A stretch of DNA of 42,167 nucleotides. Source: a virus. Its lineage: Duplodnaviria; Heunggongvirae; Uroviricota; Caudoviricetes. The stretch is from the IMG/VR virus record IMGVR_UViG_2693429605_000013; one strand, given 5' to 3'. Position 1 is the stretch's first letter. Each line of letters begins with the position of its first letter. The notes beneath the pieces were generated by a model that was given only the letters and a program-made list of their open reading frames with translations, was not told the origin of the DNA and ran no database searches. The position numbers and the translations under genes are program-made. Positions 2,793 through 35,819 of this stretch are shown here, piece after piece.

Positions 2793-2794
2793 AA

Positions 2795-2986: not shown

Positions 2987-2987
2987 C

Positions 2988-3686
2988 TCACTCTCCTTTG
3001 ATGCGAATGCCTGCGGCGCGTGGCACATTAACTTCCACGATGCGCACTGTTGGTTTGTACATCTCAATCGCTGTCAACCAGTCAGCTCCTGTCATGCGCT
3101 TTTCCGCATCGCCATTAGTCCACTGAACCGGTACACCAATAGCCTTCATCGCGATTTCTATTTCCCCGGCAATGGCGCTTTTTCCGCAACCAGTAAAACC
3201 AGAAACAACGACAAGAACTTCACCTTTGGCTGGTTTTATTTCCCGTGCTTCCAGTTCTGCAATGCGCTTACTTCCATCCGAGATAACACCTTCGTAATAC
3301 TCACGCTGCTCGTTGAGTTTTGATTTTGCTGCTTCAAGCTCAACGCGCAGCTTCCCAACCGTAAGCGCAATATCCTCGTTCTCCTGGTCGCGGCGTTTGA
3401 TGTATTGCTGGTTTCTTTCCCGTTCATCCAGAAGCGCCAGCACGGTAGCTGGACTGGCTGCGGCGATGAATTCAGCGTTGGCCTGCTGTTCCATTTGGAA
3501 ATCTTCATCGAAACCGCTTTCTGGATGCGCTCCTTCAATTCTGCAAATGGGAAGATATCCAACAACTTCACGATGAATTAGTGCATCACCAGCATCAAAT
3601 CTCTCCTCTCCATATTCGAGCGACCACACACCACACGTTGCTTTTTCTGCCTTAGCACGCAGTGCCTGATAGTCAATCTTGCTCAC
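2988..3686 (-). CDS. Ead/Ea22-like phage protein
   Basis: 232-aa ORF with a central coiled-coil region and C-terminal GFTGCGKS motif, resembling lambda Ea22-family proteins. GTG start overlapping the upstream stop (GTGA). Confidence 0.65.
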   Translation of the reverse strand: MSKIDYQALRAKAEKATCGVWSLEYGEERFDAGDALIHREVVGYLPICRIEGAHPESGFDEDFQMEQQANAEFIAAASPATVLALLDERERNQQYIKRRDQENEDIALTVGKLRVELEAAKSKLNEQREYYEGVISDGSKRIAELEAREIKPAKGEVLVVVSGFTGCGKSAIAGEIEIAMKAIGVPVQWTNGDAEKRMTGADWLTAIEMYKPTVRIVEVNVPRAAGIRIKGE

Positions 3687-3922
3687 TGGTTGCCTCCTTT
3701 ACGGATCTGCGCTGCGATGCGCGAAAAAAAAGACTCCCGCGTATGACTGTTAAGAGCTGGCGCGAACGCTGCGTTAAGAACGGCAGCATCACAGCCGTCA
3801 TCGATATAGAGCGCAATTTTTTTCTCCAGGCGCGCTTTGGCTTCCTGCAACTGCATACCCCGGCACGCACGCGGGATATACTCAGCAATTTGAGCGATAG
3901 ATTTTTCGTTCTGTTTAAACAT
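3683..3922 (-). CDS. Hypothetical phage protein (79 aa)
   Basis: ATG with GAGGTGA SD; translationally coupled within the early-left operon. Confidence 0.5.
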   Translation of the reverse strand: MFKQNEKSIAQIAEYIPRACRGMQLQEAKARLEKKIALYIDDGCDAAVLNAAFAPALNSHTRESFFSRIAAQIRKGGNQ

Positions 3923-4118
3923 GCTTCACCTCGATAGGCTTGATGCTGTCGATCAGCAGTCGGCGGCGCGTATTTTCTGCAAAGTGGCGGCGTCCGGTTT
4001 CTTTGTGGTAAAACTCGTTTTTTCCGACGACCCACATCCGCTTTGTCTGGTGCAGTTTTTTTACCTGCGGACCGTCTCGGGTGATAACAATTCCTGTATG
4101 AGTTTTTATCACGCTCAT
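3915..4118 (-). CDS. Hypothetical phage protein (67 aa)
   Basis: ATG start overlapping the upstream stop (ATGA); operon context. Confidence 0.45.
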   Translation of the reverse strand: MSVIKTHTGIVITRDGPQVKKLHQTKRMWVVGKNEFYHKETGRRHFAENTRRRLLIDSIKPIEVKHV

Positions 4119-4477
4119 TTCTTATTCTCCGGTGCTTTCGGCATTACTGCCCAGTGAGTGATATTGACGTTTTCAAGGTCCCCGACCTGAAATATCCACT
4201 GCCATTCTCCGGTTTCTTTTTGTCCCCAGGTGTACCAGAGAGAACGCCAGCCAATCAGCCAGCCTTCTCCATTAGCATCAAATAACAGAACACTTTCATT
4301 TGCTGGTGGCAGTTCAGCTGACACTGGTATTATTTTGTTTTCCAGTGCCGCACATTTAGCTTCAAGCGCGTCGAATTTACGTACCAGGTACTCAGCATTT
4401 GTTTCGTTCACTTTCAGATCTCGCGGTACACATTTCCCGCGAAGAAACCCTTCCATTTCGAAAACATTCATGCGCAT
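4115..4477 (-). CDS. Hypothetical phage protein (120 aa), possibly DUF551-related
   Basis: ORF in operon; C-terminal NITHWAVMPKAPE resembles the DUF551-type tail. Confidence 0.5.
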   Translation of the reverse strand: MRMNVFEMEGFLRGKCVPRDLKVNETNAEYLVRKFDALEAKCAALENKIIPVSAELPPANESVLLFDANGEGWLIGWRSLWYTWGQKETGEWQWIFQVGDLENVNITHWAVMPKAPENKK

Positions 4478-5004
4478 TTGCGTAACTCCGATAACTCGTT
4501 AAAACGTTCCATAAACATCCCGTAGGCATGGCCCGGTGCCAGTGGAATCACGTTGAACATCTCTGTTGCCGGGATGCCTTCCAGTACAGGCCAGAAAGAG
4601 CCATCATCAAGCCCGAGATCGCGGCGTTCGGTTGCCAGCATGATGAGATCGGCATATTTCACAGGCGTGCTCATAACCGGGGGTAACCCGTATTTCTCAC
4701 GGATTACGGCGTCTATTTTTTCTTCCATCCGTTTATAGTCAGGAAGAAGGCGTTTCAGTGGTGCGGGGATGTCCTGGCAATATGCTTCTGTTGCATCATG
4801 CATTAACGCTTCAAAAGCAAATTCCTGCGGTACCAGCTGGCTGCAAAGCACCGCATGTTGGGCGACGCTGTAGAAGTGTGAAAGATGTCCTGCAAAGCGA
4901 CAGATATTTGAAAGGGAAACCGCGATATCGTTAATAACGATGTCGTCTTTATTTATCTTGTCATAATAAAAATGCTTCCCGGAAAAAGTTTTAATAAATG
5001 ACAT
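4468..5004 (-). CDS. HD-domain phosphohydrolase (YfdR-like 5'-deoxynucleotidase family)
   Basis: H…HD metal-binding signature (AQHAV…MHDATEA). Start taken as the ATG at 5004 with GGAGA SD; the track's longer ORF begins at a non-ATG codon at 5031. Confidence 0.7.
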   Translation of the reverse strand: MSFIKTFSGKHFYYDKINKDDIVINDIAVSLSNICRFAGHLSHFYSVAQHAVLCSQLVPQEFAFEALMHDATEAYCQDIPAPLKRLLPDYKRMEEKIDAVIREKYGLPPVMSTPVKYADLIMLATERRDLGLDDGSFWPVLEGIPATEMFNVIPLAPGHAYGMFMERFNELSELRKCA

Positions 5005-5131
5005 TTTGTTCTCCACGTATATGCGCTGCACCGCGCTGAATTCTGGTAAAAGGAAGCCCTCACCATCCGGCGATTATTGAGTAAATTATGTTTCCATAAA
5101 TGCCCCCGCAGGGGCATTTGCAGTAATGAAA

Positions 5132-5956
5132 TCAGGCGGTGAAAGTACCAATAAAGGTTTCTACTTTGCTGTCTTTAAATTTCTCAACAAGCAGATCACG
5201 AAATTCGTTAGCCATTTCTTCCTGCACCGCTTCCAGCTGAATAATGCGCAGAACCAGTACAGGACGATCGCCAGTGATAATGCTGAGGCGTAATTTAAAC
5301 GGACGTTCTTTCAGGCCTTCAAACGGAACGCATTTAAATTCAAATGCCACTGGCATAATGTCTTTGGTCTTCGCTTCGACAGACTCCATCAGGGAGCGTT
5401 TGCCGCTGAAGTCATTGTCTTCAAAATCAGCGGTCTGGTTCGCTTCAATTGTGATTTTACGGATCGCCGCAGCCGCTTTGGTTGCCTGAATGGCGTCACC
5501 ATTAGCATCAAAGCCCACAAGGTAGTCGGCCCAGTCTTCAATCCATTCTGCCAGTGACTTTTGGGAGTTACGCTCGCCATTAACAGACAACAGAGCAGAG
5601 AACGGTGCTGTCTTTTTCAGTTTGAGAGTGGCGGTGTTATCTGCGTGACCTGGTTCATCAATAGTACCCAGGTTAAGCACACTGACGGCACGCATATTAT
5701 CGGCATCGATAAAGCAGCGGGTGCCTTCATCTGCAAGATCTTTAGAATAACGGGTAAAGTCATCGATGCTGGCAGTGGAAAGCGCACCACGGAAACGGAA
5801 GCGATTTAAATTAAATTTTTCCAGATCATGAATGCGGAAATTCTCAGGCAATGCCACAGCATCGGCACCAATCTTACTAATAATTTCATTAACACCCTGA
5901 GCAGAAATAAGGGCATGGATTTGATTAATTGCGGTTGCGTCTAAGTTCTGAGACAT
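5132..5956 (-). CDS. DUF2303 / YfdQ-like phage protein
   Basis: 274-aa ORF with GTGAGGA SD; family assignment recalled from CPS-53-type prophages where it neighbours the HD hydrolase. Confidence 0.6.
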
Positions 5957-6021
5957 AATAAGTCCTCACTATATAAGGATATTCAGTGATGAGATAAATA
6001 ATCAGTTAATTAAGAACGATA

Positions 6022-6384
6022 TTAATGACCTGCTGCGCGGAGTTTTCCGTCAGGTTCACCGGCAAGAGTCAGTAATTGTCCCTGGTCTTCCTGCAGAATA
6101 GTCAGGCGACCACCGCGATTGACATACATCGGCGTTTCGGTGGTGTCTTCTTCGGAAATTTTCCCGCGGTTAGTCGGACGAACATATGAGAGTTTGTGTT
6201 TTATTTTCACACGGTTCTCATCAAACGGTTCGATTTCCAGGTTGAGCGAGACCTTCCCTTTGGTTTTCGTGTTCATCACACCTGAAGCGACTTCACTGAG
6301 AACAGCGCCGATTTTGGTTTCAAATACGCCGCCGTCCAGCTCCCCGATAAATGCCTGCACATCAGTACTGCGTTCGCTAGCCAT
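6022..6384 (-). CDS. Hypothetical phage protein (120 aa); first gene of the leftward operon
   Basis: Start set at the ATG at 6384 with GAGGAG SD. The track's longer N-terminal extension to 6570 runs through a region of long inverted repeats. Confidence 0.5.
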   Translation of the reverse strand: MASERSTDVQAFIGELDGGVFETKIGAVLSEVASGVMNTKTKGKVSLNLEIEPFDENRVKIKHKLSYVRPTNRGKISEEDTTETPMYVNRGGRLTILQEDQGQLLTLAGEPDGKLRAAGH

Positions 6385-6432
6385 TTTGCTGCTCCTCATC
6401 ATATCGACCCTGCAAGGTCGGTTGGTTTCTCC

Positions 6433-6566
6433 ACAAAACAGAGAAGAGCACCTGCGGTGGCAGCCGCCCGGGTGGATTGGGTTATGAGCCCGTCGTCCGG
6501 TGATGCTCTTCTCTGTTTTGTAAAAAGAGCGGTACCAGCCGGAAGCAAGTGTACAAACTGGTACCG
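6433..6566 (-). ncRNA. Candidate structured RNA leader: 18-bp perfect inverted repeat (6433-6450 / 6504-6521) plus 9-bp inverted repeat (6530-6538 / 6558-6566)
   Basis: Inverted repeats read directly from the sequence, between the putative pL region and the first leftward gene. Not followed by a U-run on either strand, so not a simple terminator. Confidence 0.3.
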
Positions 6567-6972
6567 CCAAAGCAGTGGCTGTTGTGGTGACCGGTGCTGA
6601 TCTCCGGCTTGCGGTTATTTCAGACTCTCACGGGCGTTTAATTGCCCCGCCGAACAGCTCTTTTCCGCAATAGCTGCAATGTCTTTCGCGCATCAGCCTG
6701 CGCATTCACCACAACGCTGAGAGCACTTAGCCAGTTACGGCACCACACTTTGTCGCGGTTCCATAAATGCCCTCATCGTTGCACCCTGGTCTCTTCCCAG
6801 GCGTCAAACCGAATCGCCACGCTGGTTAGGCGTCTTATCAGCATCCTCATTGACTTGCACATTCCGGCTACCTGGTTTGTTTGCCCGAGCAAGGAGTGGA
6901 TTGTCCCCTTTAACGTCCCCAGACCGCTAACGACGCATGTGCCATACGCCGTGTTACAACCAACCTTTCGTT

Positions 6973-7020
6973 AACAACAGTCTGTTGTTTGTTCAGATAA
7001 TGATGCTACTAAAAGTAGCA
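6973..7020. promoter_or_regulatory. Putative OL operator region: palindromes AACAACAG-T-CTGTTGTT (6973-6989) and TGCTACT-AAA-AGTAGCA (7004-7020)
   Basis: The second palindrome shares the core CTA…AAGTAG with the direct repeats next to cI (9379-9414). Location matches lambda OL relative to cI. Confidence 0.4.
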
Positions 7021-7255
7021 AAAATCAACAACAAAAAGTAGAAGTGTGTATTTAATTTTTAGTTTTCTATATAACGTTATGAATTAAAAGGTTTTTCACA
7101 GATGGGGTGATGTGGCGTAGTTACGTATAGAAAATATCGAGTGTCTTTTGTTTTGGTTTAATTATTAGGTTAATTAGATAGTAATAATTTGGGGGAAAAT
7201 AGTGGGAACTATGGATACAACGGGTCAGGAACAGTGTTATTAAGCAGGCTACGAG

Positions 7256-10667: not shown

Positions 10668-11609
10668 ATGAGCACTAAATTAACCGGCTATGTATGGGAT
10701 GGTTGCGCTGCGTCAGGCATGAAGTTATCCAGCGTGGCAATTATGGCCCGCCTGGCTGATTTCAGTAATGACGAAGGTGTGTGCTGGCCATCAATTGAAA
10801 CCATTGCCCGCCAGATTGGCGCGGGGATGAGCACCGTCAGAACGGCTATCGCACGGCTGGAAGCAGAAGGCTGGTTAACGCGTAAGGCGCGTCGCCAGGG
10901 TAACCGCAATGCGTCGAATGTTTATCAGCTTAACGTTGCGAAGCTTCAGGCAGCGGCATTTTCTCAACTGTCAGATTCTGACCCGTCAAAATCTGACGCA
11001 TCAAAATCTGACCAGTCAAAATTTGATGCGTCGAAATCTGGCAAAAAAGCGGGTTTTCACCCGTCAGAATCTGGCGGGGATCCGTCAGTAAAATCAAAAC
11101 ATGATCCGTCAGATAAAAAAACTTCTCGTCCGGACGCTTCGCAACCGGACACGCAGACGGCTGAACAGGAGTTTTTAACTCGCCATCCTGATGCGGTTGT
11201 ATTCAGCCCTAAAAAGCGCCAGTGGGGAACGCAGGATGATTTGACCTGCGCACAGTGGCTCTGGAAAAAAATCATCGCCCTGTACGAGCAGGCCGCCGAA
11301 TGTGACGGCGAGGTGGTTCGTCCCAAAGAACCGAACTGGACAGCCTGGGCAAACGAAATTCGCCTTATGTGTGTGCAGGATGGTCGTACTCACAAACAAA
11401 TCTGCGAGATGTACAGCCGCGTCAGCCGCGATCCGTTCTGGTGCCGTAACGTGCTCAGCCCGTCGAAGCTGCGGGAAAAATGGGATGAGCTTTCCCTGCG
11501 CTTATCGCCGTCCGTCAGCACGTACACCGAAAAACGCGAAGACCCGTACTTCAAATCCAGTTACGACAACGTGGACTACAGCCAGATCCCGGCAGGATTC
11601 AGGGGGTGA
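10668..11609 (+). CDS. Replication initiator, lambda O-like (N-terminal HTH, internal iteron region)
   Basis: 313-aa ORF; N-terminal HTH/winged-helix region; internal DNA iterons encode the repetitive SDSDPSKSDASKSDQSKFDASKS segment, as in lambda O/ori. Confidence 0.75.
   Translation: MSTKLTGYVWDGCAASGMKLSSVAIMARLADFSNDEGVCWPSIETIARQIGAGMSTVRTAIARLEAEGWLTRKARRQGNRNASNVYQLNVAKLQAAAFSQLSDSDPSKSDASKSDQSKFDASKSGKKAGFHPSESGGDPSVKSKHDPSDKKTSRPDASQPDTQTAEQEFLTRHPDAVVFSPKKRQWGTQDDLTCAQWLWKKIIALYEQAAECDGEVVRPKEPNWTAWANEIRLMCVQDGRTHKQICEMYSRVSRDPFWCRNVLSPSKLREKWDELSLRLSPSVSTYTEKREDPYFKSSYDNVDYSQIPAGFRG
10969..11125. repeat. Putative origin of replication: about six iterons of GTCAAAATCTGAC-like sequence at ~15-bp spacing, followed by an A-rich stretch
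   Basis: Direct repeats read from the sequence (GTCAGATTCTGAC, GTCAAAATCTGAC, ATCAAAATCTGAC, GTCAAAATTTGAT, GTCGAAATCTGGC, GTCAGAATCTGGC), then AGATAAAAAAA. Embedded in the O-like gene. Confidence 0.55.
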
Positions 11610-16741: not shown

Positions 16742-17654
16742 TTTTATTCGTCCCGTTCAGCATTTCTTCTTTTATCATATCAAAAACAGGGTTTGTTGTA
16801 TAATTATCGTTTGTCAATCCATTGACTTTATCGGCAATTATATCGAAATCGTATGTTTCAAAAAAAACAGGGCAGTTCATAAAATCAATGGTTTTTTCTA
16901 TTCCTGCATGGTTTACTGCAATAACCTGTGCTTTAGCAACTCCACTCATAGAATTATAAATATTTGAAAGATTCTGAGATAGTTGTTGCACTTTTGTTCT
17001 GTCGCTAGAATTAAAATTCATATCTATTGTGGTGGTGTTAACAAATTGTTCAAGCGCAGTCATTGGTCCACCTTTAAAATCTATATAATTAAATTTAAAG
17101 CTTGTGCTTTTAATCTCTTTGAATTGACATAAAACACTCTGAATGTTGTTTTTATTTGTCATAAGGCTGAAAGTCAGTCTTTCTTTGTATTTTTTATTTA
17201 TTGCAGTTACTTCTTTTTGTTTTGGTTTATCACCAAGTTTTTTTATTTCTTCTTTATTTTGATTTCTGATAAATTCATTACTTATTGTTTCTAAATGAGA
17301 AAAGAGAGTGTTCAGACTGCATGAACCGTGGTGATACATATAGAGACCAGAAAGATTAGATTTTTTAATTAAGAAAAAGTTGAAATTAGCAAGTTTGTCA
17401 CTTCCTTGAAGATCTTCAATTTTAAGCTGGAATTTACCATCAACAAATTGCGACTTACAGTTCTTTTTTTGGTTTCTGAATGTGACAACTAATCCATAAT
17501 AGAAATCATTCACATCCGAAATGAGAATTTTACGAGTATAGTCTGTGCGACTGTGTTCTCTGTTTGATGCGTTGATAAAAGCATTCATTACGTCAACGGT
17601 ATTAATATTTTTGTTATTGTTATTTATTGTAAATCCTATGCTTCTAACTTTCAT
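16728..17654 (-). CDS. Hypothetical soluble protein (308 aa), Asn/Lys-rich; first gene of AT-rich two-gene cassette
   Basis: Long uninterrupted ORF with ATG start; no motif I recognise. About 20-30% GC by eye versus about 50-55% in flanking phage genes. Confidence 0.7.
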   Translation of the reverse strand: MKVRSIGFTINNNNKNINTVDVMNAFINASNREHSRTDYTRKILISDVNDFYYGLVVTFRNQKKNCKSQFVDGKFQLKIEDLQGSDKLANFNFFLIKKSNLSGLYMYHHGSCSLNTLFSHLETISNEFIRNQNKEEIKKLGDKPKQKEVTAINKKYKERLTFSLMTNKNNIQSVLCQFKEIKSTSFKFNYIDFKGGPMTALEQFVNTTTIDMNFNSSDRTKVQQLSQNLSNIYNSMSGVAKAQVIAVNHAGIEKTIDFMNCPVFFETYDFDIIADKVNGLTNDNYTTNPVFDMIKEEMLNGTNKNAFI

Positions 17655-17772
17655 GTGTATTCTAGGACCGACTAAAGATAGCGAGAATGGGGACGCATAG
17701 TTTATAAAAATCCTAACGCGTACGCAAAAAGTATTATATCGTGTTAAGAGTGGTTACTTCGCCACACAACTT

Positions 17773-17798
17773 AAACCCGCCGCTGAGCGGGTTTTTCT
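17773..17798 (+). terminator. Rho-independent terminator-like hairpin (candidate tR'-type)
   Basis: ACCCGC…GCGGGT stem followed by TTTTT. Confidence 0.45.
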
Positions 17799-17979
17799 GT
17801 ACCCGGAATTCTGTGGCTATCCAGAAAGCTCATGGAAAGAGGAGAAAGGCAATAATTTATAACAAAATCTTAAAGATCGCCTTGTATACTATTAGTTTTG
17901 TAAATATTGTGTATTTTGAGTATTGCAGGATAACCCTGTGACGAAGTTAGTGTAACAACACTTTTGCTCTACGAGTTTC

Positions 17980-18009
17980 GCCAGCCTCCCCCAGTGGCTG
18001 GCTTTTTTA
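17980..18009 (+). terminator. Rho-independent terminator
   Basis: GCCAGCC…GGCTGGC 7-bp stem followed by TTTTTT. Confidence 0.55.
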
Positions 18010-18010
18010 T

Positions 18011-18130
18011 GTCCGTAGCGTCAAAGCAGCAATGGCGCTGGGGCGTCGTGCAATTGGCGTTGAGCTGGAGAGCGGGCGTTTTGAGCAGACGGTCAGGGAA
18101 GTTCAGAATGTAGTCAGTCAGAACGGATGA
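18011..18130 (+). pseudogene. 3' remnant of a DNA methyltransferase gene (C-terminal ~35 codons only)
   Basis: Frame reads …VKAAMALGRRAIGVELESGRFEQTVREVQNVVSQNG*, resembling the C-terminus of N4/N6 DNA methylases; no upstream body is present. Confidence 0.4.
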
Positions 18131-18170
18131 TATTGCAGAATTAGTTACGTACCGTTATTATCCTGCGCCC

Positions 18171-18246
18171 GGCCCTTTAGCTCAGTGGTGAGAGCGAGCG
18201 ACTCATAATCGCCAGGTCGCTGGTTCAAATCCAGCAAGGGCCACCA
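18171..18246 (+). tRNA. ileZ: tRNA with CAT anticodon, most similar to tRNA-Ile2 (lysidine type; ileZ-like)
   Basis: Cloverleaf read by hand: acceptor GGCCCTT/AAGGGCC, anticodon loop CTCATAA, T-loop GGTTCAAATCC, 3' CCA. Near-identical to E. coli tRNA-Ile2 as recalled. Confidence 0.85.
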
Positions 18247-18253
18247 TCACATA

Positions 18254-18330
18254 CCGCCATTAGCTCATCGGGATAGAGCGTCAGCCTTCGAAGCTGGCTG
18301 TGCGGGGTTCAAGTCCCCGATGGCGGTCCA
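18254..18330 (+). tRNA. argN: tRNA-Arg (anticodon TCG by manual fold), C1-G72 acceptor end
   Basis: Acceptor CCGCCAT/ATGGCGG, D-arm GCTC…GAGC, anticodon stem TCAGC/GCTGG with loop CTTCGAA, T-loop GGTTCAAGTCC, 3' CCA. Anticodon assignment depends on the hand fold. Confidence 0.75.
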
Positions 18331-18343
18331 TTATCAGCATCAT

Positions 18344-18420
18344 GCGTTGTTAGCTCAGTCGGACAGAGCAATTGCCTTCTAAGCAATCGGTCACTGGTTC
18401 GAATCCAGTACAACGCGCCA
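18344..18420 (+). tRNA. argO: tRNA-Arg (anticodon TCT)
   Basis: Acceptor GCGTTGT/ACAACGC, anticodon loop CTTCTAA, T-loop GGTTCGAATCC, 3' CCA. Confidence 0.85.
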
Positions 18421-18433
18421 TATTTATTTACTT

Positions 18434-18459
18434 GGCTCGCTTTTGCGGGCCTTTTTTTG
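18434..18459 (+). terminator. Rho-independent terminator after the tRNA cluster
   Basis: GGCTCGC-TTTT-GCGGGCC hairpin followed by T7. Confidence 0.6.
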
Positions 18460-18510
18460 TATCTGCGTTACACCATTAACTAATAAATCGAGTGCTTATC
18501 AGGAGGCTAT

Positions 18511-18735
18511 GTGAAAAAACTGATGGTGACGATTGGTCCGTTCGAAACAGAAGTTAGTTTTCGTGTTGTTCAGGGGGAGAGTGTACTTGTTGAAGATGTA
18601 TTTCATGGAAAATCAACAGGTCCTTATGTAAAAGAATATCTTATCGACGCCACGGATGAAAATATTGAGGTGGTGTACGATTCCGTCAATCACCCTGATT
18701 TGATCATTAAGGCAAAATTGAAGCCACTTTATTGA
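18511..18735 (+). CDS. Hypothetical small protein (74 aa)
   Basis: GTG start 4 nt after a perfect AGGAGG SD; first ORF downstream of the tRNA trio. Confidence 0.5.
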   Translation: MKKLMVTIGPFETEVSFRVVQGESVLVEDVFHGKSTGPYVKEYLIDATDENIEVVYDSVNHPDLIIKAKLKPLY

Positions 18736-18787
18736 TCTGACCGGGAGCAATCATAAAATATCTCTGGGTACCCACAAGGAGATAAAT

Positions 18788-18997
18788 ATGTTTGTTTCTG
18801 AAGTGTTAATGGAAGATAAGGACAACAAAGGATGGGTTAAAGGTTGGGCTGTGGTAAGAAGCTCGCCCTGGCATCTTGTTGGGGTTTTTGCGACAGAGGA
18901 AGACGCAGAAACGGAAGCAAGAAAGATGGGAGATAAGTACGAGGTTCACTATGGCTCGCATCGAACAGGAAGTGATGATTTTGTCTGGGGGGAGTAA
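18788..18997 (+). CDS. Hypothetical small acidic protein (69 aa)
   Basis: ATG with AAGGAGA SD; followed by a terminator. Confidence 0.55.
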   Translation: MFVSEVLMEDKDNKGWVKGWAVVRSSPWHLVGVFATEEDAETEARKMGDKYEVHYGSHRTGSDDFVWGE

Positions 18998-19031
18998 CAG
19001 TCGTTTAACCCCAGAATAATCCCGTAACTGA

Positions 19032-19055
19032 GGTCGCTATTGGCGGCCTTTTTTG
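19032..19055 (+). terminator. Rho-independent terminator
   Basis: GGTCGC-TATTG-GCGGCC hairpin followed by TTTTTT. Confidence 0.55.
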
Positions 19056-19186
19056 TATCCGCGCCACGCCCGGCGCATATCAACCACAGAGCCTTTCGGG
19101 GGTGAGCTTACGGAGTGGTCAGTGTGACTTTCTCTGTGGGCAGATCGCTCCCGGGCGTTGGCTCACCCACCCAAAGGAACGTCACG

Positions 19187-19618
19187 ATGTTTGGTATTTT
19201 TGGTAAAAAAGCCCGCCGAGCGGCAGTGGAAATTAAAAAGTTTGAGAAACGTGATCTGGCACAGGCGGTTATTAATGCTGCCTATCTGGTGGCCTATGCA
19301 GATGGTGAATGTGAGGCTTCAGAGAAAGCGAAGATCGAGCAGATCTTGCGTAACCAGCCTGCGTTGTCCGCGTTTACGTCAGAAATTAATGCGATTAGCG
19401 CAACCATTATCGGTCAGCTGGATACCAATTTTAAAATTGGTCGTCGTGCCGCGTTACGCGAGATTGAGGATGTGAAACACGATACGCGTGAAGCGGAAGA
19501 TGTGCTGGATGTGGCGGTGGCCATTGCGGAGGCAGACGGCGAAATTGAGCCGGAAGAGCGCAAGGTGCTGGAAGAGATTGCCGGTGTTCTGGGTCTTCGT
19601 CTGGAGAATCACCTGTGA
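19187..19618 (+). CDS. TerB-like (tellurite-resistance TerB family) protein
   Basis: Two acidic helical segments typical of TerB (…AAYLVAYADGECEASEKAKI… and …VAVAIAEADGEIEPEERKVLEEIAGVLGL…). ATG at 19187 with AAAGGA SD preferred over the track's start at 19115. Confidence 0.6.
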   Translation: MFGIFGKKARRAAVEIKKFEKRDLAQAVINAAYLVAYADGECEASEKAKIEQILRNQPALSAFTSEINAISATIIGQLDTNFKIGRRAALREIEDVKHDTREAEDVLDVAVAIAEADGEIEPEERKVLEEIAGVLGLRLENHL

Positions 19619-19782
19619 CGGTAAAACTGCGCCTGGCTGTGGCTGCACTCCTGCTGTTTCTGGTGGTGATGGTGGATTTCACCACCAGAATCATGTCGGT
19701 GCTGGCGGATGGGGTGCTGGTCTGCGGCATTGTGGTATTGCTGTGGCCGGTGATAAAAAGAAACAGCCTGCATAATGCTTGA
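19615..19782 (+). CDS. Small membrane protein (55 aa, two hydrophobic segments)
   Basis: GTG start overlapping the TerB stop (GTGA). Translation MTVKLRLAVAALLLFLVVMVDFTTRIMSVLADGVLVCGIVVLLWPVIKRNSLHNA. Below the track's size cutoff. Confidence 0.4.
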   Translation: MTVKLRLAVAALLLFLVVMVDFTTRIMSVLADGVLVCGIVVLLWPVIKRNSLHNA

Positions 19783-19961
19783 TTTTTTTATTTGCTGTTT
19801 ATTAAAAACACTTCTGCATGGTGAATCCCCCTGTGCGGAGGGGCGACTGGTGTAGGTAGCATTTATTATGTTATAGGCAAGCCGACGCGGGTTCAGTGAC
19901 ACCGGCTGAATTCACCGGGAGGCACCCGGCACCATGCAAGAAAAAGAATGTGCATGCAAAC

Positions 19962-19991
19962 ATGCCCCTCTCCGGAGGGGCATTTTTTATG
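19962..19991 (+). terminator. Rho-independent terminator (ATGCCCCTC-TCCG-GAGGGGCAT plus T6)
   Basis: Perfect 9-bp stem followed by TTTTTTAT. Immediately followed by a second hairpin (GCCCGAA-TGGGT-TTCGGGC, 19998-20020) preceded by an A-run, which would terminate minus-strand transcripts. Confidence 0.65.
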
Positions 19992-20115
19992 GGTAAAAAA
20001 TGCCCGAATGGGTTCGGGCAATAGCATGAGATACTGATATTGTTGTGTTGTTATCGTGTGGATTTTAACCAGGGTTTATCAGGCTGCGCAACTGCGTGGC
20101 CTTTTTTCATTTCTT

Positions 20116-20160
20116 GGGCTGTAGTCCCCGTGTGTCATTCAGGCTTCCGGACTACAGCCC
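20116..20160 (+). promoter_or_regulatory. 12-bp perfect inverted repeat GGGCTGTAGTCC…GGACTACAGCCC with 21-nt loop, 43 nt upstream of the esterase start
   Basis: Read directly from the sequence; lies in the 5' leader of the 617-aa esterase gene. Confidence 0.4.
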
Positions 20161-20203
20161 ACTCCATATCTGATTTAATACACTATCCCGGCCGGGAGGA
20201 ATA

Positions 20204-22057
20204 ATGACATTTAAACATTATGATGTTGTCAGGGCGGCGTCGCCGTCAGACCTTGCGGAAAAGCTGACACACAAACTGAAAGAGGGCTGGCAGCCGTTTG
20301 GTAGTCCGGTGGCCATAACCCCTTATACCCTGATGCAGGCGATTACAGCAGAAGGTGATGTGGTGGTCAGTGGTGCAACTGAGCCGGATTGGTACTACGT
20401 CATCGTACTGGCCGGGCAGTCCAATGCCATGGCTTACGGTGAAGGGCTTCCGCTGCCGGATTCATACGATGCTCCGGATCCGCGCATTAAACAGCTGGCG
20501 CGCCGCAGTACAGTTACGCCGGGTGGGGCTGCCTGCAGATATAACGATATTATTCCGGCCGACCACTGCCTGCATGATGTGCAGGATATGAGTACGCTGA
20601 ATCATCCGAAGGCAGACCTGAGCAAAGGGCAGTACGGCTGTGTCGGCCAGGGCTTACATATTGCCAAAAAACTGCTCCCGTATATCCCGAATAACGCGGG
20701 GATCCTGCTGGTACCATGCTGTCGTGGTGGTTCTGCATTCACCCAGGGCGCTGAGGGGACATTCAGTGCGGACACGGGGGCCAGCCAGGATTCGGCACGC
20801 TGGGGTGTGGGTAAACCGTTATATCAGGACCTGATTGCGCGCACTAAAGCTGCATTACAGAAGAACCCGAAAAATGTGTTGCTGGCGGTGTGCTGGATGC
20901 AGGGAGAGTTTGACATGAGCGCCGCCACCCACGCACAGCAACCTGCGCTGTTTACAGCCATGCTGACACAGTTTCGTGCTGACCTCTCCGTGTTTAACGC
21001 GCAGTGCCATGGTGGCAGTGCTGCAGATGTGCCGTGGATTTGTGGTGACACGACGTATTACTGGAAAAATACATACGCTACCCAGTACGACACCGTGTAC
21101 GGCGGGTATAAAAACAGGGAGAGTGAGGGCGTTTATTTTGTGCCCTTCATGACAGACGGTAACGGCGTCAATACCGCCACTAACGCGCCGGCAGAAGATC
21201 CGGATATTCCGGCATCAGGATATTACGGTGCGGCATCGAGAACGAATGGAAACCAGGTATCATCAAACCGCCCGACACATTTCAGTTCATGGGCGCGCAG
21301 GAGCATTATTCCGGATCGTCTGGCAACCGCTATTCTGAACGCAGCCGGGCGCACCTCAGCCTTCATCAGTGGTAAGGCACCGGAAATCAAACCCTCGCCC
21401 GGCGGCAACACGCCATCGGGTCCGTTTGCAGATACGTCCGTTCGCACAATCTCCCTGCTGCCGGCAGCCGGAGAGGCTGCTGCGCAGGGCTGGAGCATTA
21501 AGGATGGCGGAATTCAGTTGTCAGATGGTGTATTTAAGATCACCAAGCAGAGCAATAAAACCTGGTCCCTGACGCATCCGGTGGATGACGCAATTACCCT
21601 GCTGACACAGGGCGGCAGACTGACCTGTAAGTTCCGCCTGTCAGGCGCACTGACCAACAATCAGTTCGGGCTGGGGATTTATCTGTATACGGATGCTCCC
21701 GTTCCTGATGGTGTGGCGATGACGGGTACCGGTAATCCGTTCCTGATGTCGTACTTCACTCAGACCACTGACGGCAGAGTGAATCTGATGCATCACAGGA
21801 AAGCCGGAAACACGAAGCTGGGGGAGTTCGGCGATTACGGTAACGACTGGCAGACGCTGGAGCTGGTGTTCACCGCCGGCAGTGCCACGGTTACTCCGAA
21901 ACTGAATGGAGTGGCTGGCCCGGCATTCCAGGTTATAAAAGACAGTCTGACACTGGGACTGAATGCGCTGACGCTGACGGATGTTACAAAAAATGCAGCG
22001 TATGGCGTTGAGATAGAAAGTCTGGTGCTGGAGATAAATGCACCGGCATCATCATAA
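20204..22057 (+). CDS. Prophage-encoded sialate O-acetylesterase, NanS-p type (DUF1737 N-terminal domain + SASA/SGNH esterase domain)
   Basis: [14 protein letters not shown] matches the GQSN catalytic block of SASA-family esterases; N-terminal MTFKHYDVV…EGWQPFGSP resembles DUF1737. Sits between the tRNAs and the holin, as in Stx phages. ATG with GGGAGGA SD. Confidence 0.8.
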
Positions 22058-28996: not shown

Positions 28997-30934
28997 GTGA
29001 CTCTTAAACGGGCCTGTTCCCTGCTGACGGTGAAATCCTTCAGCGAGGATGAACGGGTGATCACCGGGATTGCGTCAACGCCTTCTCCGGATCGGGATGG
29101 TGACATCCTGGAGCCGGAGGGGGCGGAGTTTGGCAGTACGATCCCGTTTCTCTGGCAGCATGACCATTCCCGCCCTGTAGGCCAGTGTACGGTGCGTCGG
29201 GTCAGGGAAGGGCTGGAAATCACGGCAATGCTGGTGAAGCCGGAGCCGGGGATGCCCTCCCAGATGGCAGCCCGGCTGGATGAGGCCTGGGCTGCCATTA
29301 AGACCGGGCTGGTCAGGGGGCTTTCTGTGGGCTTCCGGCCCCATGAATACACTTATCTGGACGGAGGCGGACTGCATTTTCTGCGCTGGGAGCTGATGGA
29401 GGTGTCTGCCGTCACCGTGCCCGCGAATGCGGAATGCACCATCCGGACCATTAAATATTTCGACCGCCCGTTTTCTGCCGCGTCCGGCAACCGGAAACCG
29501 GTGGTGAAAATCGCATCTTCTGCCGGCGCTTCGGCACAGTCAATAACCTCTTTTCATAAGGAAAAGTCAGCAATGAATACTGGTGAACAGATTAAAAGTT
29601 TTGAAAACAAGCGTGCGGCGCTGGCAGCCTCCCTTGAGGAGATCATGAACAAAGCCGCAGAGGAAGGCCGCACACTGGATGTGGAAGAGGAAGAGCACTA
29701 CGACAACACCGCAGCGGAAATCCGTCAGGTGGATGCGCACCTGAAGCGTCTGCGTGAACTGGAAACCAGTAAGGCCGCCACGGCACAGCCGGTGAAACAG
29801 GCCGGTAACGGGAATGTGGCCACGGTGGCTTCAGCGCCGGTGATCCGTGTTGAGCAGAAACTGGAGAAGGGGATTGGTTTCGCCCGCTTTGCCAAATCAC
29901 TGGCCGCGGCTAAAGGTGTCCGCTCTGAAGCCCTGGAAGTGGCCCGTCGTCAGTATCCGGATGACAGCCGTCTGCATCATGTCCTGAAATCGGCGGTGGG
30001 GGCAGGGACCACCACGGACCCGCAGTGGGCAGGCAGCCTGTCTGAATACCAGGAATATGCGCAGGACTTTATTGATTACCTGCGTCCGCAGACCATTATC
30101 GGGCGATTTGGTCAGGGCGGGATCCCTGCACTTCGTCAGGTGCCGTTCAATATCCGCGTGCATGCCCAGGTGTCCGGTGGTGCTGCCGGCTGGGTGGGGG
30201 AGGGTAAGGCCAGACCCCTGACGAAGTTTGATTTTGAATCCATCACCTTCAGTCATGCGAAGGTGTCGGCCATTGCGGTACTGACGGAAGAGCTGATCCG
30301 TTTTTCCAGCCCGGCAGCTGATGCGCTGGTCCGTAATGCGCTGGCAGAAGCGGTGGTGGCGCGTCTGGACACAGACTTTGTGGACCCGAAAAAAGCGGCG
30401 GTGGCGGATGTCTCCCCGGCGTCCATCACCCATGATGTGAAGGGCACGGCATCAACCGGTAACCCGGATGCGGATGCCGAGGCCGCGTTTGGCCAGTTTG
30501 TGACGGCAAATCTGCAGCCCACCGGTGCGGTCTGGCTGATGTCCAGCACGAATGCCCTGGCGCTGTCCATGCGTAAAAATGCGCTGGGGCAGAAGGAATA
30601 TCCGGACATGACCTTGCTGGGCGGGACCTTCCAGGGGCTTCCGGTGATTGTCTCCCAGTATGTGGGTGACCAGCTGGTACTGGTGAATGCACCGGATATT
30701 TATCTGGCTGATGACGGCGGTGTGGCGGTGGATATGTCCCGTGAAGCGTCACTGGAGATGCAGTCTGAACCGACCAGCGACAGCAGCACACCGTCACCGG
30801 TGGAACTGGTCTCCATGTTTCAGACCGGCAGCGTGGCCATCCGTGCGGAGCGCTGGATCAACTGGCGTCGTCGCCGTACCGCGGCAGTGGCGGTGATCAC
30901 CGGTGTGAACTACGGAACTGCGTCCGGTGGCTGA
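28997..30934 (+). CDS. Fused HK97-family prohead protease / major capsid protein
   Basis: N-terminal ~180 aa resemble a prohead protease (…ITGIASTPSPDRDGDILEP…) and the C-terminal ~400 aa an HK97-fold major capsid protein. GTG start 5 nt after AGGAGG. Confidence 0.75.
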   Translation: MTLKRACSLLTVKSFSEDERVITGIASTPSPDRDGDILEPEGAEFGSTIPFLWQHDHSRPVGQCTVRRVREGLEITAMLVKPEPGMPSQMAARLDEAWAAIKTGLVRGLSVGFRPHEYTYLDGGGLHFLRWELMEVSAVTVPANAECTIRTIKYFDRPFSAASGNRKPVVKIASSAGASAQSITSFHKEKSAMNTGEQIKSFENKRAALAASLEEIMNKAAEEGRTLDVEEEEHYDNTAAEIRQVDAHLKRLRELETSKAATAQPVKQAGNGNVATVASAPVIRVEQKLEKGIGFARFAKSLAAAKGVRSEALEVARRQYPDDSRLHHVLKSAVGAGTTTDPQWAGSLSEYQEYAQDFIDYLRPQTIIGRFGQGGIPALRQVPFNIRVHAQVSGGAAGWVGEGKARPLTKFDFESITFSHAKVSAIAVLTEELIRFSSPAADALVRNALAEAVVARLDTDFVDPKKAAVADVSPASITHDVKGTASTGNPDADAEAAFGQFVTANLQPTGAVWLMSSTNALALSMRKNALGQKEYPDMTLLGGTFQGLPVIVSQYVGDQLVLVNAPDIYLADDGGVAVDMSREASLEMQSEPTSDSSTPSPVELVSMFQTGSVAIRAERWINWRRRRTAAVAVITGVNYGTASGG

Positions 30935-31145
30935 GTCTGATGAGGAGGGCGGGAGGCGCGAGCTTCCCGCAGTAACAGATGGCAAAAATCCAGTATCTGC
31001 AGGGCACGCATGATGCCCGGGCCGGGGATATCCGTGATGTGGCACAGCCGTGTGCGGAGGTGCTGGTTCGCCTGGGGAAGGCGGAGTACATCACAGCGCG
31101 ACGTCCGGCAGGTCAGAAAAAGACACGTGATGCGGAGCATGGCGA

Positions 31146-32510
31146 ATGTGGAACCTTTTGCGGCGAACCCGAAAAAACCAGAAATCAGGACGTGACGTAA
31201 GAGAAGTGGGCTGGCGGTCCCTGTTTCAGGCGGTGGCTGAGCCTTTTGCCGGTGCCTGGCAGCAGGGTGTGAAAGCCGATCCGGAAACCGTTTTGTCCTT
31301 TCACGCGGTGTTTTCTTGCATTTCGCTGATATCCCAGGATATCGCCAAAATGCGACTGCGCCTGATGCAGACCGATACACAGGGGATCCGCCGTGAAAAA
31401 CGGCAGGGGGATATTGCCCGTCTCTGTCGTCGTCCCAATGCACAGCAGAATCGTATCCAGTTTTTTGAACTGTGGCTGAACGCCAAACTGCGTCACGGCA
31501 ATACGGTGGTGCTGAAAATCCGTAACTCCCGGGGGCAGATCAAAGAACTGCGTATTCTGGACTGGAACCGGGTTGAACCTCTGGTGGCGGATGACGGCGA
31601 GGTGTTCTATCGCATCACGCCGGACCGGAACTGCGGGATCACGGAGGCGGTGACGGTGCCTGCCCGGGAAGTGATCCACGACCGGTTTAACTGTTTTTTT
31701 CATCCGCTTGTGGGGCTGCCGCCGGTGTATGCCGCCGGGCTGGCGGCCATGCAGGGGCATCATATTCAGGCAAATTCGACGTATTTTTTCAGAAATGGCG
31801 GCAGGCCGTCCGGGGTGATTGAGGTCCCCGGCAGTATTACGGAAGAAAACGCGAAAAAACTGAAGGGGAACTGGGACAGCGGATATACGGGCGAAAATGC
31901 CGGGAAGACGGCCATACTGAGCAACGGGGCAAAATACAGCCCCACGACGTTTTCACCGGTGGATGCGCAGACGGTGGAACAACTGAAAATGACGGCTGAA
32001 ATTGTCTGTTCGGTGTTCCGTGTCCCGGCCTACAAGATTGGCGTTGGCCACCCGCCTTCCAGTGACAACGTGGAGGCGCTGGAGCAGCAGTATTATTCCC
32101 AGTGTCTGCAGACGCTGATTGAGTCCATTGAGCTGTTACTGGATGAGGCGCTGGAAACGGGGGAAAACGAGAGCACGGAGTTTGACGTCACCACGCTGCT
32201 GAGAATGGACAGCGAACGGCGCATGAAAACACTGGGGGATGCGGTGAAAAATACGCTTCTCACGCCCAATGAGGCCCGTAAACGTGAGAACCTGCCGCCC
32301 CTTGCCGGCGGTGATGCACTGTATCTTCAGCAGCAGAACTACAGTCTGGAGGCGCTGTCCCGTCGTGATGCCCGTGAGGACCCGTTCGCGTCGGCCGGGA
32401 AAACAGTTTCAGCACAACTGCCTGACGGCGCATCTGACGGTAATAAGGCAATCAGTGAAACAGAGCATGATGCAGTGAAAGCGATGTTCAGGGGGATACT
32501 GAGAAAATGA
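31146..32510 (+). CDS. Portal protein (HK97 family)
   Basis: 454-aa ORF with conserved portal core (…FFRNGGRPSGVIEVPGSITEENAKKLKGNWDSGYTGENAGKTAILSNGAKY…). Confidence 0.8.
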   Translation: MWNLLRRTRKNQKSGRDVREVGWRSLFQAVAEPFAGAWQQGVKADPETVLSFHAVFSCISLISQDIAKMRLRLMQTDTQGIRREKRQGDIARLCRRPNAQQNRIQFFELWLNAKLRHGNTVVLKIRNSRGQIKELRILDWNRVEPLVADDGEVFYRITPDRNCGITEAVTVPAREVIHDRFNCFFHPLVGLPPVYAAGLAAMQGHHIQANSTYFFRNGGRPSGVIEVPGSITEENAKKLKGNWDSGYTGENAGKTAILSNGAKYSPTTFSPVDAQTVEQLKMTAEIVCSVFRVPAYKIGVGHPPSSDNVEALEQQYYSQCLQTLIESIELLLDEALETGENESTEFDVTTLLRMDSERRMKTLGDAVKNTLLTPNEARKRENLPPLAGGDALYLQQQNYSLEALSRRDAREDPFASAGKTVSAQLPDGASDGNKAISETEHDAVKAMFRGILRK

Positions 32511-33568
32511 CGGAACGGGAACTGTCCATTATTCGTGCACTGGGCGAAGAATTCGCCACGGTGCTGGCGGATTTACAGCGCACATTTGAGGGGAAGATGG
32601 CCGCGCAGGCACAAGCGTTTGAAGAGAAACTGGCTTCCCTGTCGGCGGTATTACAGAAGCATGTGACGGTGGATGAGGTACATCCGGTTCTGCAGGCGAT
32701 GGTGGATGACGCTGTGGGGACCATTCCGGTACCGCGTGATGGTCGTGATTATGATCCGGATGTACTGCAGCAGGCGGTGAATGATGCGGTTGCGAATATT
32801 CCGGTACCGGCGGACGGCAAAAGTATCACCCCCGATGATGTGCGTCCGATGCTTGAGCAGATGGTGAAAGAGGCTGTAAGCCATATCCCTGCTCCGCGTG
32901 ACGGTCGTGATTATGATCCGGAAGTACTGAAGCAGGCGGTGAATGATGCGGTTGCGAATATTCCGGTACCGGCGGACGGCAAAAGTATCACCCCCGATGA
33001 TGTGCGTCCGATGCTTGAGCAGATGGTGAAAGAGGCCGTAAGCCATATCCCTGCTCCGCGTGATGGTCGTGATTACGATCCGGAAGTACTGAAGCAGGCG
33101 GTTCTGGAGGCGGTGAATGCCCTTCCGGCTCCGCAGGACGGGCGTGATGCCACGGCACTGGAGGTGCTCCCCGCTATTGACGATCAAAAATCCTTTCCCC
33201 GGGGCACGTATGCCACACACCTGGGTGGACTCTGGCGGGCGTATGAAAAAACGCACGGGATGCGGGGATGGGAATGCCTGGTTGACGGGGTGGCGGATAT
33301 CGACGTCAGCATGACGGATGAGCGGTTGTTCTCTGTGGTGATCCGGCAGAGCAGTGGCCAGTGTACGGAAAAAACATTTTCCCTGCCGGTGATGCTCTAC
33401 CGCGGTGTGTTCAGAGCCGGTGAAACCTACCACCCCGGCGATACGGTGACGTGGGGGGGCTCGCTGTGGCACTGCAACAGTATGACCGGTGATAAACCCG
33501 GAGAAGCTCATTCATCAGGCTGGACCCTGGCTGCAAAACGTGGACGGGATGCAGGAGGCGGAAAATGA
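32507..33568 (+). CDS. Phage head-module protein with internal ~50-aa tandem repeats
   Basis: ATG overlaps the portal stop (ATGA). Contains 2.3 copies of a 150-bp repeat encoding PRDGRDYDP(D/E)VL(Q/K)QAVNDAVANIPVPADGKSITPDDVRPMLEQMVKEAVSHIPA. Confidence 0.6.
   Translation: MTERELSIIRALGEEFATVLADLQRTFEGKMAAQAQAFEEKLASLSAVLQKHVTVDEVHPVLQAMVDDAVGTIPVPRDGRDYDPDVLQQAVNDAVANIPVPADGKSITPDDVRPMLEQMVKEAVSHIPAPRDGRDYDPEVLKQAVNDAVANIPVPADGKSITPDDVRPMLEQMVKEAVSHIPAPRDGRDYDPEVLKQAVLEAVNALPAPQDGRDATALEVLPAIDDQKSFPRGTYATHLGGLWRAYEKTHGMRGWECLVDGVADIDVSMTDERLFSVVIRQSSGQCTEKTFSLPVMLYRGVFRAGETYHPGDTVTWGGSLWHCNSMTGDKPGEAHSSGWTLAAKRGRDAGGGK
32736..33090 (+). repeat. In-frame tandem repeat, 150-bp unit, about 2.3 copies
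   Basis: Copies start at about 32736, 32886 and 33036 and are nearly identical with a few substitutions. Confidence 0.8.
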
Positions 33569-33891
33569 CGGCATTACTGACACTGGAAGAGATCAAGGCA
33601 CATCTGCGTGTTGACCATGACGCGGATGATGACATGCTGATGGACAAGGTTCGTCAGGCTACCGCCGTGCTGCTGGCCTACATTCAGGGTAGCCGGGATA
33701 AAGTGATTCGTGAGGACGGTGAGCTGATCCCGGGCGAGGCATTAACCCGGATGAAGGGGGCTGCCATGCGACTGACCGGGATGCTGTACCGGAATCCGGA
33801 TCTTGCTGAGCGGGAAGACCTCGTGCAGGGGGAACTGCCGTTTTCTGTGTCCGTGCTGATTTACGATTTGCGTTGTCCGACGGTGTTATGA
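33565..33891 (+). CDS. Head-tail connector protein (gp6-like)
   Basis: N-terminal …LTLEEIKAHLRVDHDADDDML… is typical of the gp6-like connector family; ATG overlaps the upstream stop. Confidence 0.7.
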   Translation: MTALLTLEEIKAHLRVDHDADDDMLMDKVRQATAVLLAYIQGSRDKVIREDGELIPGEALTRMKGAAMRLTGMLYRNPDLAEREDLVQGELPFSVSVLIYDLRCPTVL

Positions 33892-35102: not shown

Positions 35103-35819
35103 ATGTCTGCTTTGTATGAACGCTCACAGCTGACGCAGGTGATGATTTCATCTGCCCCGGCGACTGCTGAAACTATGGATAAGGCGGAATATCTGCGCCT
35201 GGACTGCACCATCAAGGAAGTCCAGTTCACCGCCGGTCAGAAACAGGATATTGATGTGACCACGCTCTGCTCCACCGAGCAGGAGAACATCAACGGTCTG
35301 GGGGCGTCGTCTGAGATTTCCATGTCGGGTAATTTTTATCTGAATCAGGCCCAGAACGCCCTGCGTGATGCCTATGACAATGACGCGTTGTATGCGTTTA
35401 AGGTGCTGTTTCCGTCCGGTAAGGGCTTTAAGTTCCTGGCGGAAGTGCGTCAGCACACCTGGTCATCCGGTACCAACGGCGTGGTGGCAGCAACGTTTTC
35501 ACTGCGTATGAAAGGCAAACCGGTGTCCTTTGTGGTACCGCTGGCGTTTGTGAAAAATCTGGATAAAACACTTACCGTGAATACAGGTGCGCTGCTGACA
35601 ATGTCAGTCAGTGCCAACGGGGGAACGCCGCCGTATAAATACGCCTGGAAGAAGGATGGTCAGCCGGTTGACGGGCAGACGACAGACACCTTCAGTAAGC
35701 CAGGTGCGCAGTCCGCTGATGCGGGGAAATATACCTGCGTGGTGACCGATTCGGCAGAGAAAGCACAGAGTGTGACGTCTGTTGAATGCACCGTGACAGT
35801 GAGCGCAGCCGCCGGATAA
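35103..35819 (+). CDS. Major tail protein with C-terminal Ig-like domain
   Basis: 238-aa ORF with CAGGAGG SD; C-terminal ~90 aa (…TVNTGALLTMSVSANGGTPPYKYAWKKDGQPVDGQTTDTFSKPGAQSADAGKYTCVVTD…) resembles an Ig-like domain. Confidence 0.75.
   Translation: MSALYERSQLTQVMISSAPATAETMDKAEYLRLDCTIKEVQFTAGQKQDIDVTTLCSTEQENINGLGASSEISMSGNFYLNQAQNALRDAYDNDALYAFKVLFPSGKGFKFLAEVRQHTWSSGTNGVVAATFSLRMKGKPVSFVVPLAFVKNLDKTLTVNTGALLTMSVSANGGTPPYKYAWKKDGQPVDGQTTDTFSKPGAQSADAGKYTCVVTDSAEKAQSVTSVECTVTVSAAAG

Follow-up and report, generated by a model that had tools for sequence, protein, structure and literature searches.

A portal-adjacent putative appendage gene with a 162-bp tandem repeat of variable copy number in lambdoid Escherichia coli prophages

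The viral stretch IMGVR_UViG_2693429605_000013, which was analysed over its full length of 42,167 nucleotides and is referred to here as the window, is a lambdoid E. coli prophage. Between the genes for its portal protein and its head-tail adaptor lies a gene, here called EXT, that carries near-identical tandem repeats. We found that this repeat is polymorphic among prophages in whole units of 162 bp, a polymorphism of a kind that is ordinary for phage appendage genes, and that the encoded protein is built as an anchor, a stalk and a tip. The explanation that best accounts for these observations, to which we assign a probability of about 0.6, is that EXT is an accessory appendage of the portal vertex, a function that we infer, and that the length of its stalk is reset by unequal recombination. 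Beyond this reading, the analysis corrects the size of the repeat unit, shows that the annotation of such loci as a ‘frameshifted portal’ is misleading and recognises a large uncharacterised portal-adjacent family that keeps a fixed position between portal and adaptor.

The original prediction, made from the window alone, had described about 2.3 nearly identical copies of an in-frame 150-bp (50-aa) unit in a head-module gene. Near-identical in-frame repeats are indeed found at this site, within the 353-aa open reading frame (ORF) of EXT, and family matches of the neighbouring ORFs place the gene in the head module. Tandem Repeats Finder (TRF) likewise returned 2.3 copies (97% matches, no indels, score 707), but with a period of 162 bp, corresponding to 54 aa, so that the proposed unit of 150 bp and 50 aa had to be revised. 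Between copies 1 and 2 there are 4 differences over the 162 positions, two of them synonymous and two replacement, while the partial third copy is near-identical over about 47 bases and divergent thereafter; repeat identity is far above chance. Each 54-aa unit contains two stalk modules, which are older and diverged sub-repeats of 25 and 29 aa (DPEVLKQAVNDAVANIPVPADGKSI and TPDDVRPMLEQMVKEAVSHIPAPRDGRDY) detectable both as a 75-bp row in TRF and by dissection of the protein, and an older, weaker 162-base periodicity extends over 32672-33157. An antisense ORF of 286 aa (32651-33511, minus strand) spans the whole repeat region; it has no support as a gene and is probably a by-product of the repeat and the codon composition of the sense strand.

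Comparison of related prophages revealed that the gene varies in 162-bp steps. Its length in other E. coli prophages is 738, 900, 1062, 1224, 1386 or 1710 bases, and the corresponding proteins of 245, 299, 353, 407, 461 and 567-569 aa hold 0, 1, 2, 3, 4 and 6 full units, respectively. Across 7 kb, Stx2a_1447 and the window share a head module at 99-100% identity, save for exactly one extra unit in Stx2a_1447, which directly documents a recent gain or loss. Units differ from each other at 0-11 of 162 positions inside one allele versus 14-21 between lineages, and this greater likeness within alleles is the signature of unequal exchange and concerted evolution. Both expectations voiced earlier, that copy number varies between related phages and that the array expanded recently, are thus borne out, the latter in the sense of a recent gain or contraction. 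With near-identical units, a unit length that is a multiple of three and a copy number that differs between close relatives, the array has the properties of an in-frame variable-number tandem repeat. The allele of the window itself recurs widely: in 120 E. coli records the best-matching place is at least 99% identical to the window gene, the 1062-bp allele is present at 99.7-99.8% identity in 12 phage records, and over the repeat gene the window is 99.8% identical to Stx1a/Stx2a prophages and to an O26:H11 chromosome. Many BLAST hits cover only bases 226-1062 of the ORF, and a recombination breakpoint at ORF base 225 was considered for this reason; full alignment showed that the pattern reflects how BLAST handles an extra unit.

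In the mechanism that we propose, the near-identical 162-base units would misalign during replication or recombination, through slippage or unequal exchange. Each such event would add or remove 54 aa and hence two stalk modules at once, so that the stalk would gain or lose length by whole units while the anchor helix and the tip domain would stay untouched.

The EXT family is large, with 5600 clusters at E<=0.001 and 642 at E<=1e-30 in a library clustered at 50% identity, and the best 149 distant family representatives range from 85 to 1237 aa in length (median 390). An alignment of 40 members displayed an N-terminus that is variable yet always helical, a varying count of helix-loop modules and a well-conserved C-terminal domain of about 130 aa with the motifs YPRGTYAxHxGGLWR and YxxGDxVTWGGSxWHC...KPG. 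In the window protein these parts correspond to the anchor, a helix of 48 aa, the stalk, a string of helix-loop modules, and the tip, a beta domain (Table 1). Every module starts with a short amphipathic helix and continues into an I-P-x-P-x-D-G-x-D loop, and the repeat region as a whole is strongly acidic (31 acidic versus 15 basic residues). In the AlphaFold2 model of the monomer, the stalk appears as six helices of 13-18 aa with 12-aa loops between them at a low confidence (pLDDT 46-73), as would be expected if the helices need partners. Some homologues add collagen-like Gly-X-Y tails, which imply trimers, and for this reason we consider EXT to be probably an oligomeric, segmented coiled-coil fibre. 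Other homologues, of 167-200 aa, have almost no stalk, which suggests that the stalk acts as a spacer.

The tip was modelled with pLDDT values above 90 as an all-beta domain (residues 220-345) and contains a small three-stranded beta fold that can be superposed on known chitin-binding domains. Scores against the CBM5/12 family PF02839, 18.6 bits for the window protein and 21.9-25.7 bits for homologues, lie below the Pfam gathering threshold of 26.2. The C-terminal domain also shows weak similarity to phage tail fibres and to collagen/ChiC_BD phage proteins, and matches in a viral structure library were collagen-repeat and ChiC_BD proteins of uncultured phages. The tip is predicted to be a probable glycan binder. 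A sequence search of the PDB returned weak CBM5/12 matches and, as an effect of composition, designed helical repeat proteins, with no solved relative of EXT. NCBIfam has no model for EXT, homologues bear the precomputed label PF28083, and no characterised product was found among the EXT homologues of cultured phages.

The main local feature, which the original prediction had missed, is a run of G residues that decides whether EXT is a separate protein or is fused to the portal. The window carries five G residues (G5) 12 bases upstream of the EXT ORF, in the context AGGGGGA, which resembles a Shine-Dalgarno site located 10 nt 5' of the ATG. The TGA stop codon of the portal gene (32508-32510) overlaps this ATG; at either end, EXT shares a 4-base ATGA with its neighbour, the portal gene on the 5' side and the adaptor gene on the 3' side. 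At fused loci the junction reads ...AVKAMFRGDTEKMTERE..., where the window reads ...AVKAMFRGILRK-stop and then MTERE..., and the sole difference between the two is six G residues (G6) versus G5. This junction is present in 1058 E. coli records, of which 366 contain one or more exact G5 61-mers and 752 one or more exact G6 62-mers. Many E. coli homologues are fused to the portal, with intact fused portals of 753, 859-861 and 1021 aa, including one in the isolated phage 2851; a portal-EXT fusion is independently present in one distant lineage. With regard to a contingency switch, G5 and G6 are both common; the tract is short, and recombination could mimic recurrence.

These junctions bear on where EXT resides. 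The ATGA overlaps suggest that EXT would be translationally coupled with portal and adaptor and hence be made at a low, portal-like copy number. Since split and fused forms both occur in isolated phages, EXT is likely to sit close to the portal, and because the fusion is tolerated in an isolated phage, in most E. coli copies and in the distant lineage, the EXT N-terminus would normally lie near the portal C-terminus, to which the G6 allele would tether it. The portal C-terminus normally faces the capsid interior, which, together with the tolerated fusion, makes an interior location at least as likely as an exterior one. Counter to this, the layout of anchor, stalk and tip, the collagen-like relatives and the modules of glycan-binding type look like an external fibre. 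On a rough estimate, EXT has an even chance of lying inside the capsid and an appreciable but smaller chance of lying outside, and its absence from the virion is improbable.

The most serious alternative to a portal-vertex appendage is that EXT is an external head decoration or a neck or head fibre that contacts host glycans, with copy number tuning its reach and the G6 fusion hiding or inactivating it. This possibility, which we regard as real but distinctly the less probable of the two, draws on the anchor-stalk-tip design and the collagen-like tails of some homologues, on the CBM5/12-like modules, on the weak resemblance to tail fibres and to collagen/ChiC_BD proteins of phages, and on the acidity of the repeat region, which would be unusual beside packaged DNA. 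On the other hand, EXT matches no known decoration or whisker family and its gene is coupled to that of the low-copy portal, not to the capsid gene. In addition, a strictly external protein is hard to square with the fusion to the portal C-terminus that an isolated phage and 752 of the 1058 genomes with the junction display, and equally with the independent fusion in a distant lineage. The earlier suggestion of a surface-exposed or decoration-like protein is unproven, given the lack of a match to any known decoration family, the position of the gene between portal and adaptor and the tolerance of a C-terminal portal fusion.

A more specific and speculative form of the portal-vertex model, which we consider unlikely, would make EXT a new class of portal-crown appendage inside the capsid of HK97-type siphophages of Proteobacteria. 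Around 12 copies would be held on acidic, length-adjustable stalks that extend from the portal C-termini. They would leave the capsid either before the DNA or together with it, and the CBM5/12-like tips would bind peptidoglycan or some other glycan of the envelope; a mutable G5/G6 run in E. coli would heritably switch between a free and a portal-tethered form.

The G5 junction can also be read in a different way, namely that the EXT ORF is the C-terminal part of a long portal, that the portal of the window is a frameshifted, inactive pseudogene and that the repeat lies in a decaying gene. In RefSeq/PGAP, bases 4640-7062 of the identical O26:H11 locus, which comprise portal and EXT, are labelled as a pseudogene, ‘phage portal protein, frameshifted’. 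Intact fused portals of 753-1021 aa exist, and phrog_2271 models a fused ‘portal’ of 859 positions, the first half of which matches the portal and the second half the EXT ORF. Furthermore, the survey by Asadulghani et al. assigned a defective portal to several Sakai prophages with this type of head, possibly on account of the G5 junction. The source of the RefSeq label is the G6 run of many E. coli prophages, by which portal and EXT become one gene. The EXT ORF itself does not match the portal profiles PF04860 and TIGR01537, and the whole portal domain is contained in the upstream ORF, so EXT is not a portal domain and the name ‘portal protein’ that has been attached to it derives from fused alleles.

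What decides between the two readings is the state of the locus in distant relatives. We surveyed 13 distant viral contigs (47-58% identity) and about 50 genomes of Enterobacterales, Pseudomonas, Caballeronia/Paraburkholderia, Marinobacter, Rhizobium and other Alphaproteobacteria; genome contigs were searched with a profile built from a 10-sequence alignment of the EXT C-terminal domain. The order TerL, protease-capsid, portal, EXT, Ad1 is kept throughout this set, which spans Alpha-, Beta- and Gammaproteobacteria, and at every locus EXT has an ORF of its own, which either overlaps the portal stop codon or directly adjoins it. The distant portals end in ...KAMLRGLLTK-stop with an ATGA overlap, and this matches the ...KAMFRGILRK-stop of the window and not the fused frame. 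Because EXT is a separate ORF at the distant loci and the portal C-terminus is conserved in the split frame only, the split portal/EXT form of the window is, on this comparative sequence evidence, the ancestral and normal two-gene state. By the same evidence, the G6 fusion is to be seen as a derived one-base insertion in E. coli that has arisen or spread repeatedly. The converse polarity, G5 as a one-base deletion that splits a long portal, which is also the view of PGAP, is rejected in view of the distant split loci together with the portal C-terminal peptide.

Further observations agree with this polarity and weigh against a pseudogene. The portal is fused in only 1 of the 149 distant family representatives, and the G5 state is found on diverse haplotypes, in contrast to a nearly clonal main G6 clade. 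Even so, a tree of 520 flanking bases from 48 loci requires at least four changes between the G5 and G6 states, and one identical haplotype occurs with both. The split allele is moreover carried by isolated phages, namely Lys8385Vzw, Salmonella phage FSL SP-016 and Rhizobium phage RHph_X2_26. Of these, Lys8385Vzw is plaque-forming and was induced with mitomycin, purified from a single plaque, propagated and sequenced from a DNase-treated lysate. With the split arrangement and its short overlap being the rule in relatives from three proteobacterial classes, the pseudogene reading is already largely refuted, and we consider it improbable.

Even less probable is that a programmed -1 ribosomal frameshift at the G-run produces a minor portal-EXT fusion beside the two separate proteins, in analogy to lambda G/GT. 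As read from the sequence, a -1 slip of tRNA-Gly on A-GGG-GG-A would yield exactly the protein of the G6 allele, and the neighbouring codons AGG and ATA are rare in E. coli. However, the junction is without a canonical X-XXY-YYZ heptamer, and thus without the conserved slippery site of the lambda G/GT type, and distant relatives lack the G-run at this place and have the ATGA overlap only; a stimulatory structure was not seen either, no search having been aimed at one.

That the 2.3 copies reflect a repeat collapsed or expanded during assembly, for which one could cite a 162-bp unit exceeding the length of many short reads, can practically be dismissed, since the identical 1062-bp gene is found in many independent complete records and other copy numbers are clean multiples of 162 bp with open reading frames. 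The more general warning that the repeat is an assembly hazard for short reads is plausible but was not demonstrated by these data: 114 of the best 120 database homologues lie on contigs of at most 15 kb, but these contigs mostly break within the portal gene, and the prophages are multi-copy, with a median of 4 places per genome.

When set beside known systems, EXT would by its position and presumed portal binding work most like the MuF/SPP1 gp7 group (PF04233, PF06152), which includes the MuF polymorphic toxins and whose genes likewise lie directly 3' of the portal gene, a position that EXT keeps in about 60 distant loci. SPP1 gp7 is a low-copy protein of the head interior that binds to the portal, and the C-terminal parts of the group vary (PMC5576092). 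EXT is not a member of this group; neither the window protein nor 9 homologues gave a Pfam match to the MuF domain at E<=0.01, and EXT instead consists of a single long N-terminal helix, helix-loop repeats and the CBM5/12-like beta domain. In its overall layout, EXT resembles fibritin. This phage T4 protein (wac) has an anchor, a segmented helical stalk and a small globular C-terminal domain and is associated with the head-tail junction, an association that EXT would share. However, there is no match in sequence or fold, and fibritin has no counterpart to the portal-adjacent gene or to the tolerated portal fusion. The C-terminal helical barrel of the P22 portal extends the portal C-terminus, as the long EXT helix directly does in fused G6 alleles; in contrast to the barrel, the EXT helix normally resides on a separate protein and comprises only 48 aa, which are followed by about 300 residues including the beta domain. 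The fold of the tip is shared with CBM5/12 (chitin-binding type 3), but its score is under the Pfam threshold, its modules are embedded in a larger beta domain of 130 aa and ligand binding is a prediction. Lactococcal neck-passage-structure genes and collagen-like repeat genes contain long near-identical in-frame units that vary in number and thereby alter appendage length. EXT has the same kind of near-identical long units, the number of which differs between close relatives, and is distinct from them in protein family, in its repeat unit (54 aa, two helix-loop modules) and in genomic position.

These findings affect how a substantial set of prophages is read. About a third of the complete E. 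coli genomes with this head module (366/1058 records) carry at least one split G5 copy, and annotation pipelines, and probably at least one survey of prophage defects, treat such copies as broken portals, whereas the comparative data indicate the normal two-gene state; the scoring of Stx-type and related prophages as ‘defective’ changes accordingly. The 162-bp copy number is also a clean and fast-changing marker between near-identical Stx prophages, which short-read typing may misreport. Purified virions of EXT-carrying phages have already been run on a mass spectrometer, so that the presence of EXT in the virion can be checked directly; virion proteomics of the Pankowvirus phi330 are deposited as PRIDE PXD061229, and the supplement of the phi330 paper contains no peptide table for phi330. 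In the record of this phage, vB_EcoS_phi330 (PV189401), the repeat gene, the gp10-like gene and the tail tube gene within 2501-5010 are each split into two ORFs, a pattern that suggests sequencing or assembly errors in the record and not biology.

Table 1. Positions of EXT, its parts and the adjoining features in the window.
Feature	Position	Strand	Basis and remarks
HK97-family portal gene, 454 aa	31146-32510	+	PF04860 E=7.9e-81; TIGR01537 E=4.8e-108
Poly-G run G5	32491-32495	+	Direct comparison with fused loci; G6 allele fuses portal to downstream ORF
Repeat gene EXT, 353 aa	32507-33568	+	ORF list; separate gene
N-terminal long amphipathic helix, aa 3-50	32513-32656	+	AlphaFold2 pLDDT 83-91; presumed anchor or oligomerisation element
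Six helix-loop modules, aa 55-217	32669-33157	+	Protein dissection, AlphaFold2; 25 or 29 aa each
162-bp tandem array	32732-33102	+	TRF, copy comparison; segment varying in copy number
Conserved all-beta C-terminal domain with CBM5/12-like modules, aa 218-345	33158-33541	+	
Head-tail adaptor Ad1, gp6-like	33565-33891	+	PF05135, phrog_40; start overlaps EXT stop

The window is organised in the order integrase, replication initiator with iterons, NanS-p-like esterase, lysozyme, terminase, head module and HK97-type tape measure, and the head module itself comprises TerS, TerL, a protease-capsid fusion, a small ORF, the portal, the repeat gene, Ad1, a head closure protein, gp10-like and gp17-like proteins and a tail tube with an Ig domain. 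A single 645-aa polypeptide (28997-30934) combines the prohead protease (Peptidase_S78) with the HK97-type major capsid protein. Its gene lies 5' of the portal gene, an unusual order that is kept together with the repeat gene across prophages of Alpha-, Beta- and Gammaproteobacteria. Between capsid and portal genes, a small ORF of 73 aa (30979-31200) overlaps the portal start by about 55 bases; it corresponds to the RefSeq conserved hypothetical protein WP_001063025 and gave no family match. At its C-terminus, the major tail tube protein (35103-35819) has an Ig-like domain (Ig_3/I-set) with additional matches to Hoc-like decoration PHROGs, and the 3' end of its gene is the stretch most divergent from the Stx2a_1447 module (62-80% identity per 100 bases).

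Another repeat was observed at 10977-11040, where a 15-bp unit, TCTGACCCGTCAAAA, is present in 4.3 copies (also scored as 30 bp in 2.1 copies). It lies inside ORF 10668-11609, a helix-turn-helix replication-initiator-like gene (PF13730), and looks like lambdoid origin iterons embedded in an O-type gene. Finally, within the intervals 17654-20204 and 20204-22057 the window encodes a NanS-p-like esterase (DUF1737, SASA and DUF6645), and in Stx phages such an esterase is encoded directly downstream of stx. The ORF list upstream of the esterase in the window includes no ORF of the size of the stx A subunit and instead a TerB-domain ORF (19115-19618); the window may be a non-Stx relative of the matching Stx prophages.
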